Shown in pieces: positions 7,064 through 58,938 of a stretch of DNA of 64,000 bases. The stretch spans positions 32,001-96,000 of the forward strand of contig JAHPZE010000001.1 of the NCBI GenBank assembly GCA_019058365.1. Direction: 5' to 3'. A program made the position numbers and the translations under genes. The stretch's first letter is position 1. Each line of letters begins with the position of its first letter. Under the pieces are notes generated by a model, which did no database searches, was not told the origin of the DNA, and worked only from the letters and a program-made list of their open reading frames with translations. Source of the DNA: Promethearchaeota archaeon (GTDB taxonomy: Archaea > Asgardarchaeota > Lokiarchaeia > Sigyniarchaeales > SOKP01).

Positions 7064-8206
7064 ATGGAATCCACGAAGAGTGAAGATTGTCTTATATTTT
7101 ATGGTTTCACTCCAGAAATTACTAAAATGCGTCAAGTTTTCAGTTCAATCGCAGATTTTATGAAAAATAAACAATTAACAGATCCCTCTGATAGATTTAA
7201 CCTTATTGTGTTTCAGCATGATGGACCAAATTATTTAGATCATTTCACTTTTGATCAAGAACTTATTCTTAAAACATTGAAATCTATGAGTGGGGATATT
7301 ACTAATGCAAATATCGCTGGTGGAATTTTTATTGCAATAACCTTCATAATTGAAGTATATAAGAAAATTTCTGAAAAGATATTTCGATTATTAATATTGA
7401 TAGATGAAGGAGCATATGATATCCCCTCTGATTATCTTCCTCCCATAGAGGAGTTAATTAAAGTTGTTAAAGATATGCCTTTCTTTATTGACGTTGTGCG
7501 TATTGGACTGCCAAACTCAGAAATAAGTACAAAATTAATGAAATTAACAAAATTGTGTAATGGTGAATTCTACGAGATTGCTACTATTCGAGAATTAGAT
7601 CCCATATTAACAACCTTATCAGAGAAGAAGTATGTCTCAGAACCATCATTTATTAAACAAAGAATACGAATGATTTTACCAGATAATCAACCTTTTTATA
7701 TAAATTTAGCTGATGCACCCGAAAGTATTGATGATACAGTGACATGCTCGATATGTTTTAAAACTGATAATAAGAATATAGTTATGTGTCCATCCTGTGA
7801 AAGTGTTGCCCATAAAGTATGTTGGGCTCAATGGGCTGAAACATCTAATATTGGGATACCTTATGTGTTTCGATGCCATAATTGTTTTAATATTTTAAAA
7901 CTTGAGAAAGAGTTTGTGCAGGATGTTAAATTGGGTAAAATTCCTACCATTGCAGAATTAAGTAAAGTTAAGAAAAAGAATATTATTGAATATATGCATG
8001 AATTAGAAGCTAAAAGAAAACCTAAGATAATTCATGCTGATGATCCAATAGCGGTTTCGATTAGAGCAAAATTATCAGCTGAAGAAGTAAAAACTCAACC
8101 AAAAAAAACTAAAAAGAGAGCGGATGTCAAAATTTGCCCCAATTGCAGTAAAATTATAAAGGGCTCGCGAAAAAGTTGCCCATCTTGCGGTTTTGTATTA
8201 TTTTAG
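7064..8206 (+). CDS. VWA-like domain + C4HC3 finger + zinc ribbon protein, paralog 2
   Basis: Colinear homolog of 5766-6932 over its full length. Confidence 0.7.
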   Translation: MESTKSEDCLIFYGFTPEITKMRQVFSSIADFMKNKQLTDPSDRFNLIVFQHDGPNYLDHFTFDQELILKTLKSMSGDITNANIAGGIFIAITFIIEVYKKISEKIFRLLILIDEGAYDIPSDYLPPIEELIKVVKDMPFFIDVVRIGLPNSEISTKLMKLTKLCNGEFYEIATIRELDPILTTLSEKKYVSEPSFIKQRIRMILPDNQPFYINLADAPESIDDTVTCSICFKTDNKNIVMCPSCESVAHKVCWAQWAETSNIGIPYVFRCHNCFNILKLEKEFVQDVKLGKIPTIAELSKVKKKNIIEYMHELEAKRKPKIIHADDPIAVSIRAKLSAEEVKTQPKKTKKRADVKICPNCSKIIKGSRKSCPSCGFVLF

Positions 8207-8229
8207 AAATTGAAAGTTTAAGGATTCTT

Positions 8230-8976
8230 CTAGGAGTGTAACTTTTTCTCTATTATATCATATATATTTTTAATATTTTTTTTAAGATTAAAAACATCAA
8301 ATTTCACGCCGATTCTCGCTCTCAGAAGTGTTGGGATATGGTCTCTATTTATAAAGACAGGAATAATTGGTTTTTTAATTGCATGGGCAGCCATCCATTC
8401 ATCTTCGACAAATTCAGACCTTAATGCATTTGGAGAGCAAAATAAGATTATTACATCACATCTACTAATATTTCTATCCATATACTTGATAAAATTATCT
8501 TGTGTATCTTCTTCAAAATAGAGAATATCCTCTATTTTATCATATTTAGTCAATTCTTCGGCAATTTTTCTAATGTTGAAAAGTTGACTATCTGCCATTG
8601 CGTAACTAATAAATCCGATGAGGTTGTTTCTATCTTCTAATTTTCCTTTTTTTTTTAACACTCTTTCCTCATATATGGGCTTAGGTTTACCAATTGTAAT
8701 AAGAGATTTCAACTTTTCTTTTTCATACTTAGATAATAATATAATTATCCAAATATACACACAACATGAGATAAATCCCAGATAAAAACCAAATCCAAAA
8801 ATTGTCGGTTCTCTATTTAACACGGGGACTATGTCAACATAGAGAAGAAATATTAAAAATATAATATCAATAATTCCTATTATTATAGCTCCTCGGATTG
8901 CCCTAGTTATTATAATGTTTGAAATAATTATAAATATTAAAGCAATTAAACGCCAAGTAATATAATAAACAGTCAA
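8230..8976 (-). CDS. Membrane-anchored TIR-domain protein
   Basis: N-terminal hydrophobic helices; FISYA...CDVIILFCSPNALRSEFVEDEW...KPIIPVF TIR signature. Frame stays open upstream to about 9084, so the start is uncertain. Confidence 0.85.
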   Translation of the reverse strand: MTVYYITWRLIALIFIIISNIIITRAIRGAIIIGIIDIIFLIFLLYVDIVPVLNREPTIFGFGFYLGFISCCVYIWIIILLSKYEKEKLKSLITIGKPKPIYEERVLKKKGKLEDRNNLIGFISYAMADSQLFNIRKIAEELTKYDKIEDILYFEEDTQDNFIKYMDRNISRCDVIILFCSPNALRSEFVEDEWMAAHAIKKPIIPVFINRDHIPTLLRARIGVKFDVFNLKKNIKNIYDIIEKKLHS

Positions 8977-9300
8977 ATAAGGGTCATAATAAGGTTCACC
9001 ATTATATAAAATTAGATAAGGAAAGAATTGAGAAAGGAAAAAAACAAGAACAGAAGAAAGATAAATAATTCTGATTATTAATATTCACTGCTTTAGTATA
9101 AACTACACCTTTAAATCAAAACTATGTATCTTTAAGCCTTCTGGGTATTTAAATCGTAAAGATATTTCTTGATTTATATATGCATTTACTTACATTTTCA
9201 AAATTTATGTACTGAACTTTTATAAACCAAATATTTAAATAATTTATAGCTAAATCAAATAATAACTTGAACTAGATCTTTTTTTAAACTGATCTTAATA

Positions 9301-9501
9301 GAAGATAAAAACAAACCGAGAATTATTCAAGCTGAAGATCCAATGGTAGTTATGATTAGGGTAAAAATTGATGAAGAAAAAGTAAAATCCAAAAGCAGAC
9401 AAGATAAAAAAAATTAATACGTAAATATCTGCCCTAATTGTAGCAAAATTATAATAGGTGCGAAAAAGCAATGTCCTTCGTGTGGTTTTTTCTTGTTTTA
9501 A
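9301..9501 (+). pseudogene. Orphan 3' end of a third VWA/zinc-finger gene copy
   Basis: Translates to EDKNKPRIIQAEDPMVVMIR...DKKN*YVNICPNCSKIIIGAKKQCPSCGFFLF*, colinear with 8006-8206. Confidence 0.9.
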
Positions 9502-11290: not shown

Positions 11291-12130
11291 ATGGAAGATC
11301 TTAAAACTTATGCTGAAATTACATGGTGTCCAGGATGTGGAAATTTTGGAATTTTTACTGCGATAAGAAATGCAATCCCTCTATTAGAGCAAAAAGATAT
11401 CAAAAGAGAGAGTATAGTTATGACTGCTGGAATAGGGTGTCATGCAAAAATTTTTGATTATCTTAATTTAAGTGGAATTTATGGATTGCATGGACGTAAT
11501 TGTTCAAATTCTGAAGGTATCAAAATAGCAAATCCCGATTTAAAAGTAATTAACTTTTCGGGAGACGCAAATGGATTAGCGGAAGGTTTGGCACATACTA
11601 TGTTCGCAGCAAAAAGGAACCAAGATATAATGTTTATTTTACATAATAATAGCGTGTATGCTCTTACAACAGGCCAATTCTCTCCTTCAGCAGAAAAAGG
11701 TTGGAAGGGCCCCTCTACTCCCAGAGGTAGCTACGAAGAACCATTTAACCCCATATCGTTGATGATTGAAGCAGGTGCTACTTTTGTTGCAAGAGGTTTT
11801 TCTGGAGATATTAAACATCTCACTGATCTTATAGTACAAGGAGTAGAACATGAAGGTTTCACTTTCATAGAAGTCTTGCAACCAGCTGTTCCCTACCATA
11901 CTTGGGCTGAATACAGAGAACAAATTGAATATCTCAAAAAAGAACCAGATACACAGTTCGAAGCTATTAAAGCTGCTAAAGAGAAACATAAGTTTACAAT
12001 AGGAGTATTTTATAGAACGACAAGACCACTTTATCATAAAGAGTTATATGGAGATCACAACCCTATTACTAAAAGGCTGTCGAGAGATGAAAGATTATAT
12101 AAAATTCGCAAAATACTTGAATCTAAATAA
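11291..12130 (+). CDS. korB: 2-oxoacid:ferredoxin oxidoreductase beta subunit
   Basis: WCPGCGNFG, GIGC, SGD...NNSVYALTTGQFSP TPP-binding motif. Confidence 0.93.
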   Translation: MEDLKTYAEITWCPGCGNFGIFTAIRNAIPLLEQKDIKRESIVMTAGIGCHAKIFDYLNLSGIYGLHGRNCSNSEGIKIANPDLKVINFSGDANGLAEGLAHTMFAAKRNQDIMFILHNNSVYALTTGQFSPSAEKGWKGPSTPRGSYEEPFNPISLMIEAGATFVARGFSGDIKHLTDLIVQGVEHEGFTFIEVLQPAVPYHTWAEYREQIEYLKKEPDTQFEAIKAAKEKHKFTIGVFYRTTRPLYHKELYGDHNPITKRLSRDERLYKIRKILESK

Positions 12131-12162
12131 AGAAATTTATGGATTTTGAAAATATTGAGTAT

Positions 12163-12480
12163 TCAGTTTAATTTATCGTTATTTTTTTCAATTTCTTTAA
12201 GGATTTTTGAATAAAGAGCAGAGGATATCCTCAAAGTAGTATTTTCTACGAGATTATGAAGAAAATTTTTACACTTTTCTACATTAATAAATTTTAAGCG
12301 CGTTGCTTTGATAAGGGCACCTATAGGACCAGTGACTTTTAAGCCTAATGTCCTAGCAATCTCCCATGCTGCTAAATCATCAATATTAATAACACTTTCA
12401 CCAGTATTATCTTGAAATTTCTTTGCAAAGGCTAATACAGATGCTTCTCCAGCACTAATATGTAATTCAATGATATTAAC
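12163..12480 (-). pseudogene. 3' fragment of PIN-like (DUF3368-type) gene
   Basis: GEASVLAFA...IDDLAAWEIARTLGLKVTGPIGALIKA...LRIS; N-terminal half absent. Confidence 0.65.
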
Positions 12481-12714
12481 AATAAAATTCGATATGCTTT
12501 CAATAAAGTGGAAGACATAAGCGCATCTGCAGAAGGACAAACTGCTTCTATGGAAAAGATTACCTCTACGGCGCATAAATTGAGGGTAAAAGCAGAGGAA
12601 TTAATGAGATTATTAAATGCAAAAGAAACCTCTGTTGTAAAAAAGAAAATGTTCAAATCTAAGAAAATAAAATTGAAAAAAAAAAGAGATATAAATGAAA
12701 ATGATGATAATTAA
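12480..12714 (+). pseudogene. 3' fragment of methyl-accepting chemotaxis protein
   Basis: VEDISASAEGQTASMEKITSTAHKL matches the MCP C-terminal methylation helix; no upstream body. Confidence 0.7.
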
Positions 12715-12775
12715 TACTTTCTTAGAAGAGCTTCCCGAAAGTTTCAAATTACTTTTTTTTCCTTAATTTCCCCTT

Positions 12776-12847
12776 ATATTTAGGAGTAAAAGGAAATTCT
12801 TGTAAATTTTCGTATCAGTTTTTAGGCGTTCTTAACTTTTTAAGCAT
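12776..12847 (-). pseudogene. 5' fragment of haloalkane dehalogenase-like gene
   Basis: MLKKLRTPKN*YENLQEFPFTPKY resembles the LRTPxxRFxNLxxFPFxPxY N-terminus. Confidence 0.55.
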
Positions 12848-12884
12848 ATACTTCACTAATGTATTAAATTACCATTCGATAATT

Positions 12885-13817
12885 TTATTTATTGCCACTC
12901 TTATTTTTCTGCTCTTCTAAACAGAATTCACATTCCTCAACACCAGCTTTATCACAGACTTTACACATATGCTTGTATCCTATATCCTTACCTGCTCTCC
13001 TTTTTGGTGAAAAAATTATAGAAATTACAAAAATAACACTTATAGTTATGGTGATTGTAGAACCAGATGGTAAGTTAAGGATATAAGATAGATACAGCCC
13101 TACAAAGGATGAAACCGCTCCGAATAGTATTGAAAGTAATAAGATCCGATTTATCTTATAGCTCCATTGGTATGCAGCAGCAGCAGGAGTTGTAATCATT
13201 GCAAAGACCAAGATTGCCCCTATTGCCTTTAAGGAGACTACAATAGCTAATGAAATTAATATAAGAAATATGTAAGAAATAAACCTTACAGGTAACCCTG
13301 TTGCACTGGCCATTTCATCATCGAAAGTTATAAAAAATAGTTCCTTTTTCATGAAAAAAATGATCATAATGATTATGATACTAATAGAGATTAATAACAG
13401 TAAATCTTCAGTTGTGACTATCAAAACATTTCCAAATAGAATAGCAGTAACAGCAGCATTATATGTTTTAATCAAACTTATAAATAATACTGCTAGAGCC
13501 ATTGTTAGAGAAAAAATAATCCCTACAGCAACATTATTATCCTCTATATAACCCTTCTCATTTATGAAACCAATTGTCATTGCTGCCCCAGTACTAAAAA
13601 GGAAGATTGTAACAAACGGATTTATTCCCAAGAGTATTCCCAAAGCTCCTCCTGCAAATGAAGAATGTGCAATTCCTGCTCCCATAAAAACTAAACCTCG
13701 TAGTATTATAAAAACACCCACAAGACCGCAAATAATTCCTACTATTATTGATGTGATCAACGCACGTTGGAGGAATGTATACTTTAATAAAACTTCGAAA
13801 AAATTTTCAAATAACAT
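12885..13817 (-). CDS. znuB: Zn/Mn ABC transporter permease (ZnuB-like)
   Basis: GIAHSSFAG, ILFGNVL, FDDEMA..GL, GAILVFAMITTPAAAA, LPSG. Confidence 0.9.
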   Translation of the reverse strand: MLFENFFEVLLKYTFLQRALITSIIVGIICGLVGVFIILRGLVFMGAGIAHSSFAGGALGILLGINPFVTIFLFSTGAAMTIGFINEKGYIEDNNVAVGIIFSLTMALAVLFISLIKTYNAAVTAILFGNVLIVTTEDLLLLISISIIIIMIIFFMKKELFFITFDDEMASATGLPVRFISYIFLILISLAIVVSLKAIGAILVFAMITTPAAAAYQWSYKINRILLLSILFGAVSSFVGLYLSYILNLPSGSTITITISVIFVISIIFSPKRRAGKDIGYKHMCKVCDKAGVEECEFCLEEQKNKSGNK

Positions 13818-13920
13818 GATAAATCTATACTTTTCTAATAATATTTTGAATAAAATTATGGAAAACTCCTTTAAATTTCTTTTTATAGATTTACTATCTA
13901 AAAGTTTAAATTAAATTATA

Positions 13921-13950
13921 TACGAATGATCGTAGATACGAACCATCATA
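13921..13950. promoter_or_regulatory. Tandem palindromic operator candidate
   Basis: TACGA-ATGA-TCGTA-GA-TACGA-ACCA-TCATA between divergent znuB and znuA. Confidence 0.55.
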
Positions 13951-13965
13951 AAATTAAGAATAATT

Positions 13966-15027
13966 TTGATTATGAAAAATATGAAAAACATGAAAAGAAG
14001 TAAAAGAGTAGCATTTGTTATCTTTTTCATCTTTTTATTAGTAGTAAGTATTAGATTAAATACATATCAAATAAATAAGCAAGCTGCCCATCCATTAAAT
14101 TCTTTTAAAGAAGCAAATACTTCACTGAAAATTGTGGCAACAATTACGATAATAGAAGATGCAGTTGAACATATTATTGGACAAGATGTCCCTGTCATTG
14201 TTCCTGGATCAGCAGATCCCCATTCGTACGAGCCAACATCTAATGAAATTTTGGCTCTGGAAAATGCTGATATCATCTTTCGCATGGGACTTGAGGATCT
14301 TGAACCTTGGTGGCGAACTGAATGGGAGGACGCGTATGTTGTTAAATTAATTGATTCAAATATGCTTAGAGTAGACCCTTTACTTGGGTTTGTTAATCCC
14401 CATGTTTGGATGGATCCGAATAATATGAAAAATTTTGCACAAAATATTAATCAGACTCTATGGATTAAAGACCCCTTACTCTCAAATAAGTGGATTTTTT
14501 CAAATAACACTTTGAATTATTTAACTATCCTTGATAACTTATTAATTACAATTCAGAATGCCAAAATCACTTTTAATGGAATGAAAGTTGTTGTTAATCA
14601 TCCCGCTTATTTCTATTTGTTCCAAGAAAATCTTTTAAATTTAACCCGATTAGGAACCATTGAAAAAGGGGAAGATCAAGAACCTTCTGCTATCGAGATC
14701 ACAGATATTATAAAAATAATGAGGGAAGAAGGATGTCATCTTATTGTTACAGATCCCCAACATAGAACTGAGAATGTTTATGAAATAGCTAGAGAAACGC
14801 AATCCAAAATTGCCTTACTCACTCCCCTTTTGAATGTAGAAGTCAATTGGAATAAAGAACAGGTATTAATCTCAAATTATACCCAGATGATCGAGTATGA
14901 TATATGGGCATTAAGCAATCCAATCAATCCACCAAATTTAATAGATATAATAGGAATTATCGTTACTTTTGGGTTAATAATAATTGCACTCTTAATTTTA
15001 TTTTTTTACATAAGGAGGAGAAAATAA
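13966..15027 (+). CDS. znuA: Zn/Mn ABC transporter substrate-binding protein (ZnuA/TroA-like), N- and C-terminal TM anchors
   Basis: DPHSYEP, NPHVWMDP, HPAYFY; real start probably one of the ATGs at 13972-13990. Confidence 0.9.
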   Translation: MIMKNMKNMKRSKRVAFVIFFIFLLVVSIRLNTYQINKQAAHPLNSFKEANTSLKIVATITIIEDAVEHIIGQDVPVIVPGSADPHSYEPTSNEILALENADIIFRMGLEDLEPWWRTEWEDAYVVKLIDSNMLRVDPLLGFVNPHVWMDPNNMKNFAQNINQTLWIKDPLLSNKWIFSNNTLNYLTILDNLLITIQNAKITFNGMKVVVNHPAYFYLFQENLLNLTRLGTIEKGEDQEPSAIEITDIIKIMREEGCHLIVTDPQHRTENVYEIARETQSKIALLTPLLNVEVNWNKEQVLISNYTQMIEYDIWALSNPINPPNLIDIIGIIVTFGLIIIALLILFFYIRRRK

Positions 15028-15066
15028 GTTTAAATCAGCTTTTAAATAAATAAAGGAGGCTATTAA

Positions 15067-15780
15067 ATGGAACCAGTTATAAGTTTTGAAAATGTTTTTG
15101 TTAAATATCAGAATATAATTGCTTTAAGGAACATTAACATCAATATTTATCAAGGAGATTATATTGGCATTTTTGGTCCAAATGGTTCGGGAAAAACTAC
15201 TTTTCTGAAGACTATAATAGGACTTGTTAAACCAGACAACGGGAAGATTACAGTATTAGGCTCTGAAGACATCAAAAAAGTACGGACAAATGTTGGATAT
15301 GTTCCTCAAAATATTTCGGTTAAAAAAACCTTTCCAGCAACAGTATTAGAAGTAGTGGAAATGGGATTATTTGGCAAAATTGGATTTATGAAGCCCTTAA
15401 AACCCGAAGATAAAAAGCAAGCAGAAGAAGCACTTCACATGGTTCACCTTGAAACGTATAAGAATCGTCCCATTGGACATTTATCTGGAGGAGAACTTCA
15501 GAAAGTAATGGTCGCCAGGGCAATCGCCTCAAAACCCAATATTTTACTCCTTGATGAACCCACTAGTGCTTTAGATTTTATGATGGTAAAAGACTTGATG
15601 AAATTATTGGTCGAACTAAATAATAAACTCAATATCACTATTATTGCAATTAATCATCATCTTGATTTGTTGCAACCATATTGTACTAGGTTATTACTTA
15701 TGGATGGAACTATAATATATGATGGAAAGCCAGATAACAATGAAATAGATGATATAATTAAACAAATTTTTAGTTTTTAA
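15067..15780 (+). CDS. znuC: Zn/Mn ABC transporter ATPase (ZnuC-like)
   Basis: GPNGSGKTT, GYVPQ, LSGGE, LLLDEP; GGAGG RBS. Confidence 0.92.
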   Translation: MEPVISFENVFVKYQNIIALRNININIYQGDYIGIFGPNGSGKTTFLKTIIGLVKPDNGKITVLGSEDIKKVRTNVGYVPQNISVKKTFPATVLEVVEMGLFGKIGFMKPLKPEDKKQAEEALHMVHLETYKNRPIGHLSGGELQKVMVARAIASKPNILLLDEPTSALDFMMVKDLMKLLVELNNKLNITIIAINHHLDLLQPYCTRLLLMDGTIIYDGKPDNNEIDDIIKQIFSF

Positions 15781-15805
15781 ATTAAGTGTAGATTAAGGTT
15801 ATGAA

Positions 15806-16231
15806 TTGATGATAGATTTAGACTATAAAGTATTAAAATTTTTGTATAACATCAAAAAGCCCATCAAGATAAGTCAAATGGCTCGCAAGCTTGAAATAAA
15901 ACATAGCACACTCGGTAGTTGTGTAAAAAGGCTAAAAGCGAATGGATATGTTAATTATGAACCTTTTTACGAAGTAATTTTAACCAATAAAGGTATAGAT
16001 GTTGCAAGAGAATTATTAAGACACGAATGCTTGCTTGAATTACTTTTCTTTAACGAATTAGGAATGACAGCGGAAGAAGCTCATGCTGAAAGCGCAAAAT
16101 TTAATCTTTTAATATCGTGTAATACGATAAATAAGATATGCGAAAAGTATGGGCATCCAAAAAAATGCCCTTGCGGAGACGAAATAATTAATTCGAAAAA
16201 TTGCTCTTGCGAGCTTGAGTTCAAAACCTAA
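15806..16231 (+). CDS. DtxR/MntR-family metal-dependent regulator
   Basis: HTH, GYVNYEP, LTNKG...A..LLRH, GHPKKCPCG. Confidence 0.88.
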   Translation: MMIDLDYKVLKFLYNIKKPIKISQMARKLEIKHSTLGSCVKRLKANGYVNYEPFYEVILTNKGIDVARELLRHECLLELLFFNELGMTAEEAHAESAKFNLLISCNTINKICEKYGHPKKCPCGDEIINSKNCSCELEFKT

Positions 16232-16407
16232 CATTATAACTAAAATAAATACCCTATCTAAATCTCAACCAATTGGAAAAAATTATAGAACTTTTAGTTT
16301 CCATGTTTATTCATTTAATTAAAAATTACATTGATGATTTTATCAAATTTATCAATAATAATAAAAATAAGAATGATTGAAAAATAGAAAAAGTAAAGTT
16401 GTAGAAA

Positions 16408-17061: not shown

Positions 17062-17067
17062 TATTTC

Positions 17068-17229
17068 AAAGCTGCCAATTAAAAATATAAATTTATAACT
17101 GGAGTATTTTATAGAACTTCGAAAATAGTTTATTATGAAGAGTTATATGGAGATCATAACCCAGTATTAAAAAAGATATCTAGATTGAAGAGGTTAGAAA
17201 TAATTATAGACATTCTTAAGATTAAATGA
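17068..17229 (+). pseudogene. Orphan diverged copy of korB 3' end
   Basis: KAAN*KYKFITGVFYRTSKIVYYEELYGDHNPVLKKISR...ILKIK*, colinear with 11969-12130. Confidence 0.9.
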
Positions 17230-49170: not shown

Positions 49171-49269
49171 TGGAATATTTAATATTTTATTAAACTAATA
49201 ATTAAAAATTATATATGATTTAAATTAATTGAAGATAATAAAACTGATTCTCTCAATCTATCTAATATC

Positions 49270-50793: not shown

Positions 50794-50807
50794 TTTTAAA
50801 ATGCTTT

Positions 50808-52204
50808 CTATTCTACGCCATCCCAACAATATGTACATATCTTTTCTTTCGGTAATCCAATAGCTTTAATTAAATTTTCAAGTCTCTGATATTGCAAAGT
50901 CGTCAATTGTAATTTTGTGCGAACAACTTCGACCATAGCTTTATAATTATCAGATTTTGGATCGGTATATCTGTAGGATCCTGGATATTCTTTCCAATCA
51001 GTTCTTTTATCACCCATCATCCGGCTAAATTCAATTCAGAACGAGATCGAGAGAAATTTAGAAATTTACAACTATAAACAAGTAGAGGACAGGCAGGTCT
51101 CATATGTACTTCCTTAGCTCCATATTCATATAATCTTTAAATTGTTTTTCGAAGTTGAGTACCCCTCACAATTGAATCTTCACAAAAAAGTAAACGTTTG
51201 TTATTAATAAGTTCTTCAATTGGTATTAATTTCATTTTTGCAACTTGGTCTCTAATAGATTGAACTTGTGGCATAAAGTTCCTAGGCCAAGTTGGAGTGT
51301 ATTTTACATAGGGTCGTGAAAAAGGAATTTTAGCTTCATTAACATATCCTAAACCATGTGCTGTTACTGAATCAGGGATCCCTACTACGAGATCAATTTC
51401 AATATTATCATTTTTTGCTAAATAAGATCCACATTTATATCAAACCGATTCTACGTTGATACCTTCATAATTAGATGCAGGAAATCCATAATATACTCAT
51501 AAAAAACCACAAATTTGCAGTCGGTCTCCTAGTCTGATTTTATGTTCGAGACCATTTTTACTTATAAAAATTATTTCACCCGGTCCAAGGTACTTTTTTG
51601 TTTTATAACGCAGATTAGGAAATACACAAGTTTCCATCGTTATGGCATAAGCCCCCGATTTTTCCCCTATAATAAGCAGTGTTCTTCCTAATTTATCTCG
51701 AACAGCGTAGATTTCTTCATTTGTTAATATAAGCATAGTACATGATCCATCAACCATATCTTAAACGTTCTGAATTCCTTCTTCAAATGTAGCTCCTTGA
51801 CTAATAATTGTTGCTACCATTTCGGTAGGATTAATTTCTCCTCCATGCATCTCTGAGAAATGAGATCTATTCTTTAAAGCTTTTTTTGCTAAATCTTCTA
51901 GATTATTAATTTTTCCCACTATAACAATAGCAAAAACACCTAAATGAGAATTGATTATTAATGGTTGATCATCATAATCACTGATTACTCCTATACCTTT
52001 ATTTCCGTGCATTTTCTTAATATCTTTCTCGAATTTGGACCTAAATTGAGTTGTTGTTATGGTTTTAATAAACCGTTGAAAACCATCGGAGTTTTTTACT
52101 GCTAATCCTCCTCTTCTAGTTCCTAAATGAGAATGATAATCTGTTCCATAGAAAAGATCTTCTAAACAATCTGAATCTGAAAAAACTCCGAATAAACCAC
52201 CCAT
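50808..52204 (-). pseudogene. Second, divergent purF-like gene (MGGLFG type), multiply disrupted
   Basis: MGGLFG..YGTDYHSHLGTRRGG start, CTYCWDG end; stops at 51761-51763 and 51497-51499 plus frameshifts. Confidence 0.88.
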
Positions 52205-52315
52205 TATACTTTCACTACTTATTTAAATCGAAAAATATTAATAAATGAAATTATTAATTTGATATCAAACCCTAAATTATTCAAAGTATGAATTTGGAAT
52301 ATTTTATACAACTTT

Positions 52316-54721
52316 TTATAAATTTTCTTTTTGATATTTGAATAATCCTCCTATCAATTGTCCTGTGCTTATCCCTGCGTCTCCCGGAGCAATTAAATTA
52401 TGCTCCAAAAACAAAAAACCCTCATTAATCACTTTTTCTTTAATACTTCTCGAAAAAGAATAATTATATGCAACCCCACCTGTCAATCCAATATAATTAA
52501 TTTGATTTTCTTTAGCAACTTCTAATGCAATTTCAGCAAATGCATTCCCTATTTCAATTTGAAATTTCGCAGCAATATCTGCTCGTGCATTTTTTGAATT
52601 CTCTAGTAAAGAAAGGATATTAAGTATTAGTTTTGAGGTGTTAATTATACGTATTCCATTTTTTCTGGAATACTTAATTTCTAAGTCTATATTATGAGGA
52701 TTACCTCTTGATGCTAAAGCTTCAAGTCTCATAGCGGGTTCTCCTCTGTATGTTTTAATATTTGCTGCTCCTAAAAGATAAGAAACGGCATCAAATATTC
52801 GACCAGTCGAACTAGATAAAGGTATATTCTCGGATAGAAATTTCTGATCTGCATTGCTGAATTGAGAAACCATAGACTTTAATTCATCATTTTTATATTC
52901 TAAATCATTTTCTAATCCAATTAATCTGAAGATTTTTAAAGATTCATCTACACCTAAAGTATTAAGAATAATAGAAGCTGCCATACGAGCAGGATATTTT
53001 GTACATCGATCTCCTCCAATCATTGGTTGATATTCTAAAAAACCAAGCCGCTTATAATCATTATAAGAGCTTAATAAAATTTCTCCGCCCCAAATATTAC
53101 CATCATCTCCATAACCAACACCATCAGTACTTATGCCAATAATTTTTTCATCCAGTTCGATTCTATTTTCTGCCATAAGACTTAAAACATGAGCAAAATG
53201 ATGCTGTACTGAATATAATGGAACATTAAACTGATTTGCTAATTCTTCTCCAAATTTTGTAGTTACAAAAGCTGGATGAGCATCGCAAGTAATAAATTTT
53301 AATTCAGAATCTTTAACTTGTAAAAGACTTTTAATATGAAAAAGAGCATCTTTAAGAAAATTGTAAGTTTCTAAATGAGTTGCATTTCCAATATGTTGAG
53401 TGGGAAATATTCGATTTTTCCTTAAAATTGCTCCTGTTACCGATAATTCAGGACCCGTAGCTAAAGCACTAGGTATTTCTACTTCAAATGGTAATGGTAA
53501 ATATTCTGGAACATAGCCTCTCGATCGTCTAATTAATTTTACTTTATTATTATGAATTCTTAAAACACTATCATCAGCTCTTTGGTAAATTGGTCTATTA
53601 TGAAGTAGAAATACTTCTGCTAAATCTTGAAGTTGGATGAAGATATCTTTATTTTCAATAGCCATAGGAATATAGGATTTATTCCCACTTGTATAGATTA
53701 AAGATTTTTCCCCAATATATTGAAAAAGTAAATAATGGATGCCTGAATAAGGGAGTAATATTCCCACATTGCTTAACCCTGGAGCTACTTGTTCACTAAT
53801 GATAGAATTATCAAAAGATTCCTTTTTTTCTAAAAGAACTATAGGTCTACGAAATGATGTTATTATCTCTTTTTCCTTAGTTGAGATTTTTAGATCATTT
53901 TTGAGAACATCTAAATTTGGAACCATTACAGCAAAAGGCTTATACTTTCTTTCTCCTTTTCTTTCACGGAGTTTTAGAATCGTTTCATCATTCGCTAAAC
54001 AAACTAAATGTGTACCTCCAATACCTTTCACAGCAACAATCTTTCCTTCATTAATTATCTTGGCTGTTTCTTGCAAAATAGAATCAATTGACTCATTATT
54101 AATTATTTTTCCCTGTTTATTATACAAGGTATAATGAGGACCACAAACAGAACAAGCAAAAGTTTGAGCATGAAATCTTCTATTAGTAAAATCCGAATAT
54201 TCTTGAATACAAGATTCAGGTTCAGCTTGCTGGCAGAAAGGAAATTTAATCATTGTACTCCTCTCCCTATCGTAAGGCAATTCGGTTACTGTAGTATATC
54301 TGGGACCACATACAGCACATGCGATAAAAGGATATTTATAATATTTTTTTTTTTGAGGATCATTCATATCTTTTAGACATTCATTACAGATTGCTATATC
54401 TGGTGGAAGAGTTAGGCTAACTCCACGTCCTTGTTCACTTTTCCTTATCTCTAGTTCATTAAATTCTTTTTGAAAATCCAAATAATTTATCTTAATATCC
54501 TCAATGAAAGAGATTTTTGGTTTCTTTATTTCAATATTTTTTAAAAATTTTTTAATATTTTGAAAATTACCTTGTAAAACCAATCTTACTCCTGCATTTC
54601 CCCTATTTAAAATATAACCTTTAAGATTTTGGGAATTTGCTAGATTATATAAAAAGGGCCTAAAACCTACTCCTTGAACAATCCCAGTTATCGTAATTTC
54701 TATTGTTTTATGCTCTTTCAA
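52316..54721 (-). CDS. hypF: Hydrogenase maturation carbamoyltransferase HypF
   Basis: GIVQGVGFRPF, CAVCGPRY, RRFHAQ, KGIGG, QHHFAH, DGVGYG, DAGISTGQ. Confidence 0.96.
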   Translation of the reverse strand: MKEHKTIEITITGIVQGVGFRPFLYNLANSQNLKGYILNRGNAGVRLVLQGNFQNIKKFLKNIEIKKPKISFIEDIKINYLDFQKEFNELEIRKSEQGRGVSLTLPPDIAICNECLKDMNDPQKKKYYKYPFIACAVCGPRYTTVTELPYDRERSTMIKFPFCQQAEPESCIQEYSDFTNRRFHAQTFACSVCGPHYTLYNKQGKIINNESIDSILQETAKIINEGKIVAVKGIGGTHLVCLANDETILKLRERKGERKYKPFAVMVPNLDVLKNDLKISTKEKEIITSFRRPIVLLEKKESFDNSIISEQVAPGLSNVGILLPYSGIHYLLFQYIGEKSLIYTSGNKSYIPMAIENKDIFIQLQDLAEVFLLHNRPIYQRADDSVLRIHNNKVKLIRRSRGYVPEYLPLPFEVEIPSALATGPELSVTGAILRKNRIFPTQHIGNATHLETYNFLKDALFHIKSLLQVKDSELKFITCDAHPAFVTTKFGEELANQFNVPLYSVQHHFAHVLSLMAENRIELDEKIIGISTDGVGYGDDGNIWGGEILLSSYNDYKRLGFLEYQPMIGGDRCTKYPARMAASIILNTLGVDESLKIFRLIGLENDLEYKNDELKSMVSQFSNADQKFLSENIPLSSSTGRIFDAVSYLLGAANIKTYRGEPAMRLEALASRGNPHNIDLEIKYSRKNGIRIINTSKLILNILSLLENSKNARADIAAKFQIEIGNAFAEIALEVAKENQINYIGLTGGVAYNYSFSRSIKEKVINEGFLFLEHNLIAPGDAGISTGQLIGGLFKYQKENL

Positions 54722-54869
54722 TTGCTCAACTACAGGTTTTCAAAGTTAATCTAAAATCTAATTAAATAAATAATTACTATAAAAAAAACTAATATTTTAT
54801 TATGATAGTATTATTAAATTAAGCTTTTGTTATTGAACTAACTATTTAATTAAGTGAAAGTATAGTAAA

Positions 54870-55742
54870 ATGTCTCTAAAAGAAGAATTATGGGACATAC
54901 CTTATCATAAAGCATTTTTCAAGACAAGTCATAATTCATATGTACATTCTATAAGAGAACAACTAAATAAAGGAGTTAGGGGTCTTGAATACGATATACA
55001 TGACAATAAAATACAACAATTAGAAGATTTTGAAGTATATCATTTAGAAAACCACGTTGATTCACTTCTAAGCGAAAATGGCAACCCCAGTAATTTATTA
55101 CTTTCTAATTGGCTTAAAGTATTAGATGACTGGTCTAATGATCAAAATAAAGAACATGCGCCTATAACACTATTTATTGAGCTTAAAGATAACATTATTG
55201 ATTCGAATAATGAGCCCGAAGAACTTTATGGGATAAAGAAACTAAATCAAATTATAGTTAATTCATTTACCTCTGCCACCCTTTTCACGTTTAAAAATTT
55301 CCGAGAAAAAAGCTTTAAATGGCCAACAGTTAGAGAATTAAAAGGCTGTATTATTATTGTACTTGTAAGTTATTGGGGAGGATACTGGGCAGCTAATGAA
55401 GGTGGTTTCAATTCTAGGGTAAGATATATGAATAATTGCTTACAAGGTAAAGATGACATCTGTTTTGTTTCTTGGGTTCAAGAAGACCAAGGAGAAAAAT
55501 CATCTTATCTTAAAGAAAATAGTTATTTTTGGAAATGTAGCCTTGGATATAGCACCAAAAACTTTTCTCAAAATTCTGAATCCCAAAGAGTAACCCGAGC
55601 TGATTTTGATAAAATTGTATGGGGAATGCACGTTAAAACATATTATAACAAGAGTTATGAAAATGGATATCGTTGTAATTTTCCTGCTACAGATGTTTGG
55701 GGAACTGATAAATATAATAATTGTTTTCCATGGTCATTTTAA
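54870..55742 (+). CDS. PI-PLC X-domain-like phosphodiesterase
   Basis: SHNSY, QLNKGVRGLEYDIH, VYH, HAPITLFIELKD, WPTVRELKG. Confidence 0.78.
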   Translation: MSLKEELWDIPYHKAFFKTSHNSYVHSIREQLNKGVRGLEYDIHDNKIQQLEDFEVYHLENHVDSLLSENGNPSNLLLSNWLKVLDDWSNDQNKEHAPITLFIELKDNIIDSNNEPEELYGIKKLNQIIVNSFTSATLFTFKNFREKSFKWPTVRELKGCIIIVLVSYWGGYWAANEGGFNSRVRYMNNCLQGKDDICFVSWVQEDQGEKSSYLKENSYFWKCSLGYSTKNFSQNSESQRVTRADFDKIVWGMHVKTYYNKSYENGYRCNFPATDVWGTDKYNNCFPWSF

Positions 55743-56851
55743 GAGTTTTGTTCACTATAATATTTATAATAAATACTACATGTACCTTCCATTGAAACCA
55801 TACATGGACCTACTGGATTAATCGGAGTACATTCTCTTCTAAATAATTTGCATTCATAAGGGTATAATTTTCCAACCATAACAAGATGGCAAGAACATCC
55901 AGAAGGGATATCTTGAGATTTTTCGATTTTTATGTCAAATTTTTTATCAGCATCATACTCACTATATTTCTCTCTAATGACCAATCCTCCTTCATTTATT
56001 CTTCCAATACCTCTCCATGGAGAGGAAACAGGCTCAAAAACATCTTCTATTATCTTCTGAGCGATAATATTTCCTTCAGGCTTTACAAATCTAGAATATT
56101 CATTTAGTGATTCATACTTTTTATCTCTCATTTGCTTCAAAAGCATTAAAATCGAGATTAACACATCATTTGGTTCAAATCCAGATATTACATTAGGGAT
56201 TTTATATCCTTGGGAAAATATTTCATATGGTTTTAACCCTATTATGGTTGACACATGCCCAGGTGAAATAAAACCATCGATTTTTAATTGAGATTGGCTT
56301 ATTAAAAGTTCTAAAGCAGCGGGTATCAACTTATGAGCACAAATCACTGAAAAATTTGAAGGGGGCTCAGATTGTATTTCATATCCAATTAATGGAACTG
56401 TAGTTTCAAATCCTATTGCAAAAAATATTACTTCTTTATCTGGATTTTCTTTAGCTATTTTAACGGCATCATTCGGGCCATATATAATACGAATATCAGC
56501 GCCTTTGGCTTTAAGTTCAGCAAGAGAGATATTTGAAGCAGGAACTCTGATCATATCTCCAAAAGTTGTTATTATCGTGTCATCTCGCTTTCCAAGCTCA
56601 ATTGCTTTATCAATATCAGCAGCAGGGCATACACATACTGGGCATCCTGGACCCGATAATACTTCAATTTCTTTAGGTAAGAGAGTTCTTAATCCATATT
56701 TAGAAATAGTATGTTCATGAGTCCCACAAACATGCATAAATTTAACTGGTTTATCTATTTCTTTAGTAATTTCATTTATTTTCTCAATAATTTTATCTGT
56801 AAATTCTTTACTTCTTAAAACATCTAAGCCAGGAATATTCATTTTTATCAC
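55739..56851 (-). CDS. hypD: Hydrogenase maturation protein HypD
   Basis: MHVCGTHEH, GPGCPVC, GFETT, PGHVS, GPCMVSMEGTC. Confidence 0.96.
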   Translation of the reverse strand: MIKMNIPGLDVLRSKEFTDKIIEKINEITKEIDKPVKFMHVCGTHEHTISKYGLRTLLPKEIEVLSGPGCPVCVCPAADIDKAIELGKRDDTIITTFGDMIRVPASNISLAELKAKGADIRIIYGPNDAVKIAKENPDKEVIFFAIGFETTVPLIGYEIQSEPPSNFSVICAHKLIPAALELLISQSQLKIDGFISPGHVSTIIGLKPYEIFSQGYKIPNVISGFEPNDVLISILMLLKQMRDKKYESLNEYSRFVKPEGNIIAQKIIEDVFEPVSSPWRGIGRINEGGLVIREKYSEYDADKKFDIKIEKSQDIPSGCSCHLVMVGKLYPYECKLFRRECTPINPVGPCMVSMEGTCSIYYKYYSEQNS

Positions 56852-56854
56852 CTA

Positions 56855-57907
56855 TTAGCAAATCCGAGGTATTGGTTCTCCCAACGGCATATCTACAAAT
56901 CGGGTCCCACCAACAATTGTTTTTAAAAATACTCTTTTAGGATTTTCTGCTTTTACTTTACCAATAATTTCAGCATCTTTCCCAATTTGAGTTGATTTTA
57001 TTTTCTTTAAGACATCTTGAGAGTATTTTGGATCAACTGCTAAGAGAGCTCTTCCTTCACATGCTATATTATAAGGATCTAATCCTAACATTTCACATAT
57101 AGCAATAACTTGATTCTTAATTCGAACCTTTTCCTCATCAATCCAAATGCTAACGTTAGATTTTGCCGCCCAATCATTTAAAGCAGCAGCAATACCACCA
57201 CGAGTAGGATCCTTCATTGCATGAATATAATTATTAATAATCTCAAACTTAATTTTATCATAAATTTCAAGTAATAATGAAATGTCTGATTTTAAATCAG
57301 TAGATATATTTAAACCTTCTCTAGAAGCCATTAATGCTGTCCCATGATCTCCAATACTTCCAGTTAGGATAATATTATCTTCAGCCTTAATGTTGTTATC
57401 TAAAATTTTTATGTTTTTATCTTTGATCCCAATACCGGTTGTGGCAATTATTATTTCATTCAATGTTCCCCTCGGCATAACTTTAGTATCTCCAGCAATT
57501 ATGGCGATTCTCGCCTTAGCAGCCATAAAATTCATTGAATTAACAATTTTTTCTAGTTTGTTGAATTCAAAGCCTTCTTCAATGATTATTACAGAAGTTA
57601 AAGCTAAGGGCTCAGCACCCATCATTATAAGATCATTAACCGTTCCGCAGACACTAAGAGTTCCTAAATCTCCCCCTGGAAAAAATAATGGATAAATTGT
57701 ATGACCATCTGCAGTAACAACAATTTCTTTTTCATAATTAATTAAAGGAATTGTAGCTCCATCATCTAATTCTTCGATACCAATCCCGTTATTAACGTTT
57801 TTATATGGTATATTTTTAGTTATAAATTCTATTAATTCTTCTTGCAGAACGCCACCCGCTCCATGAGCTAAACGGATTATATTTGAGCTCTCTTTTTTTT
57901 TACTCAT
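56855..57907 (-). CDS. hypE: Hydrogenase maturation protein HypE
   Basis: LAHGAGG, FFPGGDLG, GDTKV, KDPTRGG, C-terminal PRIC. Confidence 0.96.
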   Translation of the reverse strand: MSKKKESSNIIRLAHGAGGVLQEELIEFITKNIPYKNVNNGIGIEELDDGATIPLINYEKEIVVTADGHTIYPLFFPGGDLGTLSVCGTVNDLIMMGAEPLALTSVIIIEEGFEFNKLEKIVNSMNFMAAKARIAIIAGDTKVMPRGTLNEIIIATTGIGIKDKNIKILDNNIKAEDNIILTGSIGDHGTALMASREGLNISTDLKSDISLLLEIYDKIKFEIINNYIHAMKDPTRGGIAAALNDWAAKSNVSIWIDEEKVRIKNQVIAICEMLGLDPYNIACEGRALLAVDPKYSQDVLKKIKSTQIGKDAEIIGKVKAENPKRVFLKTIVGGTRFVDMPLGEPIPRIC

Positions 57908-57975
57908 AATAGAATGAATGAATTGAAAATTAAAAGAATTTATGTTATATCCTGAGTGATTGTTAAAAAGAGGTA

Positions 57976-58791
57976 CTAAATTAATTTAAGTATGGATTCC
58001 ATTGAATTTTTAGCTACTTTATACGGATCTTCGCCCCAAATTTGTTCATTGAATAGTTCTAAAGAAAGCCACTTATCATAACCAATATCCTTTAATTTTT
58101 TGACAAACATTTCAAGGTTAAAAAAACCCAGACAAGGTAAAACTCTATGTGAATCTTGTAATTCTTTATAAGGCTTCTCAATGGCATCATTAATATGGAT
58201 TAACCATAATTTTTTTAGCTCAATTGATGCTAATTCTTCTATAGGATGTTCACCAACGAAATAATGAAATGTATCAATAACCAATCCCATATCTGGTAAC
58301 TCTTCATGCTCGATGATTTTCAATGCCATCTCAACTTTTCTTACAGAACAATTCGGAAAGCCAAGAGGCTCAAAACCGAGTTTAAAATCATATTTTTCTG
58401 CTAATTTAGCAATAATTTTCAGTCTGTCTACAGTTTTAGAAATAACTTTTACAGGTTCCAGATAAGAGTCTTCAAGAAAGCTTGGAACAGCAATAATCAT
58501 ATCACAGTTGACTTTATTTCCGATATTCATTAATCTCTCAGTATATTCTAAGATTCTTTTAAATTTATTTTCTGGACACAGAGAAAATAATTCAATAGCA
58601 TTAATACTTATGCATTCAAGACCGTTATTCTCCAATAAATCTTTTAAATCCTGAACTCTATATTCCTTAAGATATTCAAAGGTCTCGTCTCGTCTCAATT
58701 CAACACCTTGAAAACCTGCTTTAGCTATCGCATCCAAGAAAATTTTCATTGGAGTTTTCATTAATGTTGCTTGATTTACGGCTAATTTCAT
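57976..58791 (-). CDS. Sugar phosphate isomerase/epimerase, IolI/IolE-like TIM barrel
   Basis: GFEPLGF, DTFH, HINDA, RVLP, SLELF. Confidence 0.85.
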   Translation of the reverse strand: MKLAVNQATLMKTPMKIFLDAIAKAGFQGVELRRDETFEYLKEYRVQDLKDLLENNGLECISINAIELFSLCPENKFKRILEYTERLMNIGNKVNCDMIIAVPSFLEDSYLEPVKVISKTVDRLKIIAKLAEKYDFKLGFEPLGFPNCSVRKVEMALKIIEHEELPDMGLVIDTFHYFVGEHPIEELASIELKKLWLIHINDAIEKPYKELQDSHRVLPCLGFFNLEMFVKKLKDIGYDKWLSLELFNEQIWGEDPYKVAKNSMESILKLI

Positions 58792-58869
58792 ATAAGAACC
58801 TAAGTTTTCTTCTTTTATTCAATTATGGAGTGATTTATTTATTTTATTATTTGTTTTTTTAATTTCCCT

Positions 58870-58938
58870 TTAAAATAAAACTCTATCCGTTCCATTAGAT
58901 AAGCGGGTTATATTTGAGCTCACTTTTTTTAGACTCAT
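58870..58938 (-). pseudogene. Orphan diverged copy of hypE 5' end
   Basis: MSLKKVSSNITRLSNGTDRVLF* vs HypE MSKKKESSNIIRLAHGAGGVLQ; shares TTATATTTGAGCTC and ACTCATAAT with 57877-57910. Confidence 0.8.

Follow-up and report, generated by a model that had tools for sequence, protein, structure and literature searches.

At dozens of places in the genome of one Promethearchaeota archaeon (GCA_019058365.1), blocks of accessory genes lie between the working end of a gene and a dead, diverged copy of that same end. Four such sites occur in the window, the 64,000-nt stretch of contig JAHPZE010000001.1 (positions 32,001-96,000) that was analyzed here, and we think it reasonably probable that they are scars of the homology-driven, recombinase-free insertion of small accessory cassettes that move between species of a single Asgard genus. 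The scar is real and common in this genome, which is labelled G000 in the comparisons below, but its kind is already known in bacteria. Among the compared relatives, G005 is the species closest to G000.

The four repeat pairs in the window are all direct, span 101-250 nt and are 76-79% identical throughout. Their local alignment scores of 79-138 lie far above the shuffle maxima of 33-47, and alignment in the inverted orientation, which served as a control, gave scores of 24-29. The original prediction had claimed direct repeats at these gene ends, and they are present where it placed them. It had also described each orphan copy as having a premature stop; a stop is found in orphans 1, 2 and 3 and not in orphan 4. 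For all four sites, as well as for two sites elsewhere in the genome (C9 and C48), there are relatives in which the site is empty and the repeated segment, T, occurs once. The repeats mark insertions of accessory DNA without an integrase, as had been proposed. Two full-length paralogs in the relatives, the pattern that the prediction had linked to ordinary duplication, were not found in place of these empty sites, and a full-length second copy was absent from relatives at five of the six sites examined.

At the first site, the parent gene (7064-8206, forward strand) encodes a 380-residue protein that has a C-terminal zinc ribbon and a domain resembling Prok-RING; the earlier name 'VWA' was not confirmed, as the only Pfam matches were weak ones to Prok-RING/zf-RING. 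Its working 3' end (8004-8205, forward), which is 83% identical to the 3' end of the G005 gene RINGb, is followed by a gene for a TIR-domain protein (8230-8976, reverse; Pfam TIR_2, E 1.8e-14) and then by the orphan 3' end (9299-9500, forward), which has one internal stop, retains the zinc-ribbon motif and runs into the region upstream of korA. The two copies are 76% identical (score 102, shuffle maximum 33). In G002 and G019 there is no TIR cargo between the RING gene and korA, and the 3' end of the RING gene occupies the orphan's position next to korA. The orphan is 72-74% identical to every relative over its full length, and its last 80 nt are 84% identical to G002. Tandem paralog families are common in the G000 genome, and the parent gene here forms a tandem pair with a paralog that precedes it at 5766-6932. 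At this site a local tandem duplication, followed by deletion and decay of one copy and insertion of unrelated genes between the two, may be the explanation, since the site adjoins both paralogs and the orphan resembles both. As a general explanation we regard it as highly improbable, because relatives carry a single gene and an empty site at korB, ugd, hypE, C9 and C48.

The second parent gene is korB, for the beta subunit of a 2-oxoacid:ferredoxin oxidoreductase (11291-12130, forward; Pfam POR subunits, korAB). The KorB protein is 79% identical to that of G005 and KorA 93%, and the working 3' end of korB (11965-12136, forward) is 82-87% identical to that of most congeners and 76% identical to that of G005. 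The cargo (12163-17061; Pfam ABC-3/ZnuA/ABC_tran/DtxR) comprises a DUF3368 (PIN-like) gene, znuB, znuA, znuC, dtxR and a 690-nt segment with an 89-aa ORF, and the orphan 3' end, again with one internal stop, follows directly (17062-17235, forward; 78% identity, score 110, shuffle maximum 34). The block at 12136-16262 is 96.3% identical to G005, which exceeds the identity of its flanks. The 690-nt segment adjoins ugd in G015, G020, G014 and G011, and only about 70 nt separate korB from ugd in G002. Because the orphan is only 72-83% identical to every korB tested, it is old. Remnants of korB also occur in G011, G015, G016 and G014, one to three in each, with three serial tails in G014 and two in G016; the window itself has one orphan per site.

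The third site involves ugd, a divergent, mosaic allele of the UDP-glucose dehydrogenase family (21701-23083, reverse; Pfam UDPG_MGDP_dh). Over its whole length it is 77.6% identical to G005, between flanks of 91-94%, and its identity profile per 100 nt points to several sources. Its working 5' end, together with about 50 nt of the promoter region (22887-23135, reverse), is of the type found in G015 and G046, a type linked to the cargo. The cargo is a glycolate-oxidase-like FAD_binding_4/CCG/FAD_binding_4 operon with an HTH regulator (23256-28706; Pfam), and it is missing between ugd and a gene for a 426-aa protein in G005, G047, G020, G003, G010, G011, G012, G007 and G014. The orphan (28746-28988, reverse) consists of the upstream region, a start codon, 58 codons and a stop (78% identity to the working copy, score 138, shuffle maximum 40). 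It is of the G005/G047 type, that of the empty site, and the block that is syntenic with G005 (28744-36989, 93.6%) begins exactly at it, so that the orphan joins the ancestral flank as had been anticipated. The left edge of the divergent tract lies in the region of the stop codon and was counted as a homologous crossover in a shared anchor. Since ugd is divergent and mosaic throughout, import of a larger block fits this site as well as the cassette model does.

These features of ugd also suit an alternative mechanism, in which every event is a case of homology-facilitated illegitimate recombination (HFIR): a linear fragment from a relative would be anchored by one homologous crossover in or beyond the shared gene, the other end of the fragment would join illegitimately inside the native gene, and the native terminus would be left as the orphan. 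Experiments in bacteria have established HFIR, which has also been put forward to explain T6SS and Rhs arrays (PMC5361080), and it accounts for a ugd that differs from the closest species over its whole length next to an orphan and flank that are native. As the route of each event, however, we consider it unlikely, for reasons that emerge from the fourth site onward.

At that site, hypE (56855-57907, reverse; Pfam AIRS) is a chimera. Its body is 94-100% identical to G005 up to approximately position 57800, and from approximately 57850 onward the sequence is 86-98% identical to G008 and G043. The repeat copy formed by the working 5' end and 41 nt of promoter (57848-57948, reverse) is 93% identical to G008 and G043 and 79% identical to G005. 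It is followed by a xylose-isomerase-like TIM-barrel gene (57976-58791, reverse; Pfam AP_endonuc_2, IolI-like), which is common to G000, G043 and G008, and by the orphan 5' end and promoter (58879-58979, reverse; 20 codons; 79% identity, score 79, shuffle maximum 47). Both the orphan (87% over 70 nt) and the flank to its right match the G005 type, which again places the orphan on the ancestral side, and G043 has the same orphan with the same inner edge. In G002, G006, G010, G009, G020 and others, hypE lies about 100 nt from the next gene and there is no cargo. The sharp break near the 5' end of hypE is the phylogenetic breakpoint that had been predicted for the intact gene. A foreign working end, a native orphan and a homologous crossover in the anchor are what HFIR leads one to expect; but the crossover falls at the repeat's inner edge, a coincidence that HFIR does not require.

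A more trivial explanation is that the contigs of this metagenome-assembled genome were stitched together from different strains or species, which the 54 contigs of the assembly and its estimated contamination of 6.6% bring to mind. This is almost certainly not the case. The same cargo-orphan junctions recur in independent assemblies (at ugd in G041 and G052; at hypE in G043 and G008, with both junctions of the site in the former and the left one in the latter), an assembler would not be misled by repeats of 76-79% identity, and the strict geometry of strand and side is unexpected for chimeras.

That geometry holds across the genome. In a census whose gene calls were crude (ORFs of at least 100 aa), at least 58 gene ends have a same-strand, non-coding copy 0.2-15 kb away, beyond the copied end, as opposed to eight copies on the wrong side and five on the opposite strand (binomial p 1.8e-10); the pattern is systematic, as had been supposed. 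Use of both gene ends, another element of the prediction, is borne out by an even division into 29 N-terminal (5') and 29 C-terminal (3') copies. Copies farther away are random with respect to strand (345:314), and the side bias is confined to non-coding remnants (42:6, compared to 55:58 for fragment matches inside other genes; Fisher p 2.9e-6). Tandem duplication predicts N- and C-terminal remnants equally on either side, at odds with the 58:8 split. Remnants measure 16-131 aa in short and long parent genes alike, and no preference for one side is seen in longer fragments, whereas the random joint of HFIR predicts remnants of any length. Where the DNA alignments are firm (50 sites), the median for T is 183 nt in length and 82% in identity, and the median cargo is 2.0 kb long; the T copies are at least 95% identical in just two of the 50 pairs, with most sites at 71-91%. 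Many cargos are a single ordinary gene. In 85 cargo proteins drawn from 39 sites, the commonest Pfam families have ordinary roles in transport, signalling and metabolism; Ras/Roc/Arf-family GTPases, transporters and defence genes are among the cargo. At least 50 scars are datable, or about one per 90 kb, and they enclose roughly 3% of the genome. Scar insertion is nonetheless one route of gene gain among several, since only four of the 11 indels between G000 and G005 in the window carry a scar.

Direct repeats of a gene end around foreign DNA are the classic att signature, and the serial remnants behind korB in G014 and G016 look like tandem integrations. One could therefore suppose that the cassettes are decayed integrative elements, which targeted gene ends, carried a replacement end, integrated site-specifically and then lost the integrase. 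Several observations make this very improbable. The window has no match to five recombinase/transposase Pfam families, in agreement with the earlier statement that it holds no recombinase or IS. Genome-wide there are two tyrosine recombinase genes (PF00589), neither of them inside a cargo; Pfam searches of the genome found no OrfB_IS605 (TnpB), Resolvase or rve, and DDE_Tnp_1 is represented by one broken copy. No recombinase family is among the commonest families of the 85 cargo proteins, and an integrase gene beside an att site within the element was found neither in the window cargos nor in the genome census. The junctions lack both a short identical attL/attR core, the window repeats being imperfect throughout, and a shared motif, as 47 junction pairs gave at most 0.3 bit per position with T boundaries that are uncertain by several bases. 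Decay of integrative elements also sits poorly with the equal use of 5' and 3' ends and with cargos of a single ordinary gene, and the recent insertion at C9 is already free of an integrase.

The insertions at C9 and C48 postdate the split from G005, and the copies of T at these sites nonetheless differ by 14-20%, which also speaks against tandem duplication. Among the 41 genomes searched, the C9 insertion occurs in G000 only, and every relative listed with both flanks has an empty site with T once. The C9 flanks are 96% and 93% identical to G005, but the two T copies are merely 80% alike. The intact gene end is native (98.4% to G005) up to its stop codon. The coding part of the orphan contains stops and is diverged from the intact copy and from every relative aligned; it is a foreign pseudogene of some age that was brought in together with the cargo, and the two T copies differed from the start. 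The exchange took place within the conserved 112-nt spacer of the repeat. At C48, T is present once in the empty site of G005, and G000 has orphans of both neighboring genes. Of the two copies at the inner left edge, the left one is native and the right one foreign; over the right 390 columns these roles are swapped. Thus, the T copies at both sites are reciprocal hybrids with the switch between native and foreign inside the segment. An illegitimate second junction outside the homology was not encountered at these two G000-specific sites, where the exchange lies within the repeat.

C9 is the opposite of what HFIR predicts, with a working end that is native and an orphan coding part that is foreign, and the two orphans and reciprocal pattern of C48 do not suit it either. 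The proposal that incoming DNA replaces the gene terminus and rejoins illegitimately does not hold generally: at C9 the intact end is native and the exchange points are within the shared repeat, so that no illegitimate joint is required there in the G000 lineage, and ugd is itself a mosaic that differs from the closest species from end to end. Of the two routes that the original prediction offered, integration through homology confined to the repeat fits better and HFIR less well, and its interpretation as a whole is partly supported.

How, then, might recombinase-free insertion of cassettes proceed? Every cassette would carry T as a short homology arm, usually of 50-450 nt and at longest about 900 nt, which straddles a gene boundary and so combines the final or initial codons of a gene with a portion of the neighboring spacer or promoter. 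Strand exchange inside T would be carried out by the host's own homologous recombination, either through a single reciprocal crossover with a putative circular molecule made of a T copy and the cargo (Campbell type) or, equally possibly, through two crossovers with a linear T-cargo-T fragment. A linear donor of that structure gives the same reciprocal pattern as Campbell integration. Either product would be a direct T-cargo-T arrangement, in which one T keeps the neighboring gene whole and the other is a dead end past the cargo. The position of the exchange would decide which T copy is native, and the orphan may accordingly be a displaced native end, as at ugd and hypE, or, in the manner of C9, an old remnant carried along by the cassette. 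If T were wholly inside a gene, the insertion would destroy the gene and be lost. Such loss would account for what the remaining scars have in common, namely their shortness, their terminal position and their restriction to the same strand and to the side of the end that was copied, as well as for the equal frequency of 5' and 3' ends. We infer the form of the incoming DNA, its travel between cells and the first acquisition of T. The first origin of each cassette probably requires at least one past illegitimate joint or long target duplication, and some illegitimate step is needed to make a cassette initially; HFIR may thus return for the origin step. A bolder and rather doubtful possibility is that the cassettes are self-addressed, enzyme-free mobile units, in which an old gene-end remnant and a conserved spacer would serve as an 'address'. 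Such units would loop out between their repeats and re-enter the same boundary in other species via the host RadA pathway, and would be a major route of gene gain in this Asgard lineage, one that includes eukaryote-like small GTPases.

Asgard genomes are large and gene-rich, and their mode of gene gain bears on models of the origin of eukaryotes. G000 has almost no integrases or transposases, yet it carries the datable scars described above. Each scar records the entry point of DNA from relatives and, in favorable cases, the point of strand exchange, so that gene flow driven by recombination between species can be read directly from the sequence. The census is applicable to any genome and separates this route from scarless flank-to-flank replacement.

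In Campbell-type integration, a circle enters through one region of homology, and the segment is duplicated directly around the insert as two reciprocal hybrids. The sites described here are similar in having one homology segment that is duplicated in direct orientation and is present once in the empty site (ugd, hypE, C9 and C48). Unlike the classical case, the homology is short and partly homeologous, and the putative molecule would have no replication or transfer functions.

HFIR (de Vries and Wackernagel 2002; Prudhomme et al. 2002; Meier and Wackernagel 2003; cited in PMC5361080 and PMC2884548) likewise captures foreign DNA beside a homologous anchor during uptake from relatives, and does so without a dedicated recombinase. 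Each event involves one illegitimate joint and usually a deletion of recipient DNA, whereas the exchange at C9, C48 and hypE lies inside the repeat and nothing native was lost. The microcin H47 island of E. coli, in the accounts drawn on here (PMC3191183, PMC5426353), is also a small insert that is flanked by imperfect direct repeats and has no site-specific recombinase, and its short repeats are said to recombine independently of RecA. It is described as a single bacterial island, in contrast to the genome-wide pattern at gene ends in G000.

The Rhs, CDI and T6SS effector-immunity loci (Jackson et al. 2009; Kirchberger et al. 2017) undergo C-terminal displacement and accumulate orphan arrays (PMC5361080). 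There too, modules recombine through the shared part of a gene, the older end is pushed downstream, serial orphans form a record of successive events without an integrase, and the two or three serial korB tails of the relatives are comparable. Those loci, however, are polymorphic toxin genes in which the displaced variable tip is functional and is kept with its immunity gene. The parent genes here are korB, ugd, hypE and a RING/zinc-ribbon gene rather than polymorphic toxins with a variable tip and an immunity gene; for such housekeeping or metabolic genes the old and new ends are equivalent, and what is new is the cargo between the copies.

In bacteria, restriction-modification genes are the described case of insertion with long target duplication (Nobusato et al. 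2000; Furuta, Abe and Kobayashi 2010; PMC2853133). The authors' screen yielded no archaeal case, and they proposed a cycle of insertion, repeat-mediated amplification and release (PMC2853133). Both systems have inserts of a few kilobases that lack a mobility gene and lie between direct repeats of tens to hundreds of base pairs. The repeated segment, which in that system often overlaps the 3' end of a gene, is present once in the genome with the empty site. The defining features of that system (an insert of less than 20 kb, repeats of more than 30 bp and no mobility gene) are found here as well. Its repeats, however, are nearly identical (e.g., 417/423), whereas two near-identical, target-derived repeats are not what the G000 sites present: the T copies at most sites are only 71-91% identical because one of the two is, in whole or in part, foreign or an old remnant, as with the orphan coding part at C9. 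Other differences are the cargo, which consists of accessory genes of an ordinary kind, and the equally frequent use of 3' ends and of 5' ends together with their promoters. With scars of this kind known from bacteria, the value of those in G000 lies in their scale and in the resolved points of exchange rather than in a new mechanism.

Four insertions in the window are each bracketed by two copies of one gene end, a segment that we call T, and the copy beyond the cargo is a dead, non-coding orphan. The 3' end of a RING/zinc-ribbon gene (8004-8205 and 9299-9500, 76% identity) brackets a TIR gene at site 1, and the 3' end of korB (11965-12136 and 17062-17235, 78%) brackets a znu-dtxR block at site 2. 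The 5' end of ugd (22887-23135 and 28746-28988, 78%) brackets an FAD-oxidase operon at site 3, and the 5' end of hypE (57848-57948 and 58879-58979, 79%) brackets an IolI-like gene at site 4. The four pairs are genuine direct repeats and colinear, as the original prediction had them, with alignment scores of 79-138 against shuffle maxima of 33-47; in inverted orientation the same pairs gave chance-level scores only. The 3'-end repeats end no more than 6 nt from the stop codon, and those from 5' ends extend 41-52 nt upstream of the start codon and thus include the promoter region. Premature stops, which the original prediction gave for every orphan, occur in orphans 1-3, but orphan 4 (20 codons) has none. 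Pfam likewise agrees with the gene names first given, except that the supposed VWA gene has only weak RING-type matches.

The same geometry recurs across the source genome (4.74 Mb in 54 contigs, 30% G+C; the window is on contig C16), and the pattern is systematic, as had been proposed. A nucleotide self-comparison of the genome missed two of the four known pairs, and we used instead a protein-level scan in which 80 residues from either end of 3770 ORFs of at least 100 aa were compared with intergenic DNA. Among best matches 200-15,000 nt from the parent gene, 58 lay on the same strand and beyond the copied end (29 C-terminal copies downstream and 29 N-terminal copies upstream), compared with 8 on the same strand but the wrong side and 5 on the opposite strand (binomial p 1.8e-10). 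Matches farther away were strand-random (345:314). In a whole-protein scan, non-coding terminal fragments split 42:6 by side, whereas the internal control, fragment matches inside other genes that reflect shared domains and paralogs, split 55:58 (Fisher p 2.9e-6). Remnants are 16-131 aa long, independent of the length of the parent gene. Firm DNA alignments are available for 50 sites, where the median length of T is 183 nt, its median identity 82% and the median cargo 2.0 kb. Since the hypE site is below the length detectable by the scan, the census count, about 12 scars per Mb, is a minimum. Repeat scans of contig C24 are swamped by a long array of ~75-nt-period repeats (49254-57197) adjoining a 106-aa ORF; a related unit lies at 73701-73963 of the same contig.

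Same-side orphans numbered three in 400 kb of G038, a genome of another family, and four in 400 kb of the congener G006, compared with one to five in pieces of 294-400 kb of the source genome. These similar densities, although the numbers are small, indicate that the pattern is not peculiar to one genome. Within the window, a scar is found at four of the five segments specific to the source genome and at none of the six specific to G005, the closest species, and the scar route is therefore a common route of gene gain but not the sole one. A 178-aa gene at 47910-48446 (source-only segment 47668-48335) is absent from G005, and no flanking repeat above chance was found at that segment, an insertion or deletion without a scar.

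More than 50 species of the same genus are open to search, and in relatives the korB, ugd and hypE sites are empty, as predicted, rather than occupied by paralog pairs: among the relatives examined, korB, ugd and hypE never occur twice at full length at these places. In G002 the RING gene, korA, korB and ugd follow one another compactly, and the TIR gene, the znu block and a 1315-aa gene of the source genome are missing. The ugd gene abuts a 426-aa gene in G005, G047, G020, G003, G010, G011, G012, G007 and G014, and a gap of ~100 nt separates hypE from its neighbour in G002, G006, G010, G009, G020 and others. In two further genomes (G041, contig C35; G052, contig C97) the ugd orphan is separated from the 426-aa gene by a ~810-aa gene, which lies approximately at the orphan's start codon and is a further insertion at the same boundary.

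Which copy is native can be read at two of the sites. The window aligns with G005 in syntenic blocks of 87-96% identity, and one of these (28744-36989, 93.6%) begins exactly at the ugd orphan, whereas ugd itself (21490-23112) is only 77.6% identical to that of G005. The orphan is 83% identical to the ugd 5' ends of G005 and G047; for the working copy, identity is 72% with G005 and 77-84% with G015, G046 and G016. Base-by-base alignment separates the 5'-most codons and promoter of ugd into two allele types, with the orphan of the empty-site type and the working copy of the cargo-linked type; the gene is a mosaic of several sources. At hypE, the body of the gene up to ~57800 is 94-100% identical to G005, and from ~57850 across the promoter and the IolI-like gene identity is 86-98% to G008 and 84-100% to G043. 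The switch falls no more than ~30 nt from the repeat's inner edge, and the orphan with ~30 nt to its right is of G005 type. Both the mosaic signal anticipated in the intact gene and the joining of the orphan to the ancestral flank are thus borne out, the former at hypE and the latter at ugd and hypE.

Two recent insertions elsewhere in the genome show where the exchange took place. On contig C9, a gene at 91256-92755 is followed by 2.3 kb of cargo between T copies at 92446-92867 and 95159-95576. This insertion is found only in the source genome among 41 genomes searched, and each relative listed with both flanks has a single T. Although the insertion is recent, the two copies share only 80% identity: the working copy is 98.4% identical to G005, and the ~310 coding bases of the orphan are diverged from the intact copy and every aligned relative, are interrupted by in-frame stops and no longer encode a cysteine motif. 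The coding remnant therefore came with the cargo, already a pseudogene. A 112-nt spacer after the stop codon, conserved genus-wide, is near-identical in both copies, and its few differences are reciprocal, with agreement to G005 on the orphan side only. The exchange thus lies inside the conserved part of T. On contig C48, T (767 nt) covers the spacer between two divergent genes together with both 5' ends; it brackets 4.25 kb of cargo and occurs once in G005. At its inner left edge, T is native in the left copy (98%) and foreign in the right one (69%); across the right 390 columns, identity to G005 is 68-82% for the left copy and 82-98% for the right one. A crossover confined to T yields such reciprocal hybrids, and a random illegitimate joint does not.

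An alternative explanation is that the target was duplicated in situ and one copy then decayed neutrally. The youth of the C9 and C48 insertions rules this out there, and it is rejected at ugd as well as at C9 and C48, given that the insertion is absent from species with 90-96% identical flanks and that the copies differ by 14-22%, one being of foreign type. Duplication and decay may nevertheless apply at site 1, which adjoins tandem paralogs. These paralogs (5766-8206; 388 and 380 aa) have weak Prok-RING matches and a C-terminal CPxC...CPxC zinc ribbon, and no VWA domain was found in them at an E-value threshold of 1e-3; one or two copies are present, depending on the congener. The orphans at sites 1 and 2 are 72-84% identical to every relative and are thus old.

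The korB-ugd interval, ~70 nt in G002 versus 9.5 kb in the source genome, is a hot spot. One korB tail is found in this interval in G011, one in G015, two in G016 and three in G014, and a 690-nt segment (ORF89) lies before the orphan in the source genome and after it in G015. In G005, korB and the znu block are separated by an additional 1.1 kb that encodes an alpha/beta-hydrolase-like ORF; a korB remnant was looked for there and not found. The DUF3368-znuBAC-dtxR block (12136-16262) is 96.3% identical to G005, compared with 86.8% for the flanking korAB and 91.5% for the 1315-aa gene, which suggests a later transfer of the block between the two lineages. The korB protein (gene 11291-12130) is 79% identical to G005, 72% to G018 and 87-88% to most other congeners, whereas the adjacent korA is 93% identical to G005, a contrast that places a recombination breakpoint between the two subunit genes. 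Among the loci retrieved, the 1315-aa gene (17515-21462) is present only in the source genome and G005. Six overlapping repeats with a 21-nt period (19515-19724) lie within it and translate into a heptad-like stretch enriched in E, L, S and N.

This 4.7-Mb genome carries many insertions and almost no classical mobile-element genes. Genome-wide there are two PF00589 genes (on contigs C7 and C46, neither in cargo), one broken DDE_Tnp_1 gene, and no OrfB_IS605 (TnpB), Resolvase or rve, a census to be read with the caveat that repeated IS copies can drop out of such assemblies. No shared junction motif was found across 47 junction pairs. Among 85 cargo proteins from 39 sites, the commonest Pfam families are ABC transporters, Ras/Roc/Arf GTPases, PmbA/TldD peptidases, response regulators, URO-D enzymes and nucleotidyltransferases. 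The small GTPases comprise three Ras/Roc and two Arf matches, and the eukaryote-like GTPase paralogs of this Asgard genome may spread as such cassettes.

On the best-supported reading, host homologous recombination inserts cassettes whose short homology arm extends across a gene boundary. Such cassettes would spread among congeners, with a donor that may be either circular (single crossover) or linear, T-cargo-T (two crossovers inside T). The orphan would be the displaced native end at some sites and a remnant travelling with the cassette at others, and selection would remove insertions with T inside a gene, so that the surviving scars are short, terminal and on the side of the copied end, at 5' and 3' ends alike. 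The original prediction, integrase-free capture of relatives' DNA, stands in this respect, but its replacement of a terminus followed by illegitimate rejoining is not the general rule, given the exchanges inside T at C9 and C48. Homology-facilitated illegitimate recombination (HFIR) possibly accounts for the ugd event, and it stays live for the origin of cassettes, since the first creation of any cassette would need an illegitimate step.

Asgard mobile elements have been described with tyrosine integrases and an 11-bp motif, and the terms "direct repeat" and "homologous recombination" are absent from that account (PMC11529989). Of the phenomena described so far, insertion with long target duplication, known for restriction-modification genes in bacteria, comes closest; no archaeal case passed the screen for it, and its repeats are near-identical to each other, unlike those here (PMC2853133). 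HFIR has been invoked for the C-terminal displacement seen at Rhs, CDI and T6SS loci, where gene ends are likewise pushed aside and serial arrays form, but those loci are polymorphic toxins (PMC5361080). The novelty here lies in the scale, in 5' and 3' ends being used equally often, and in the evidence for remnants travelling with cassettes.
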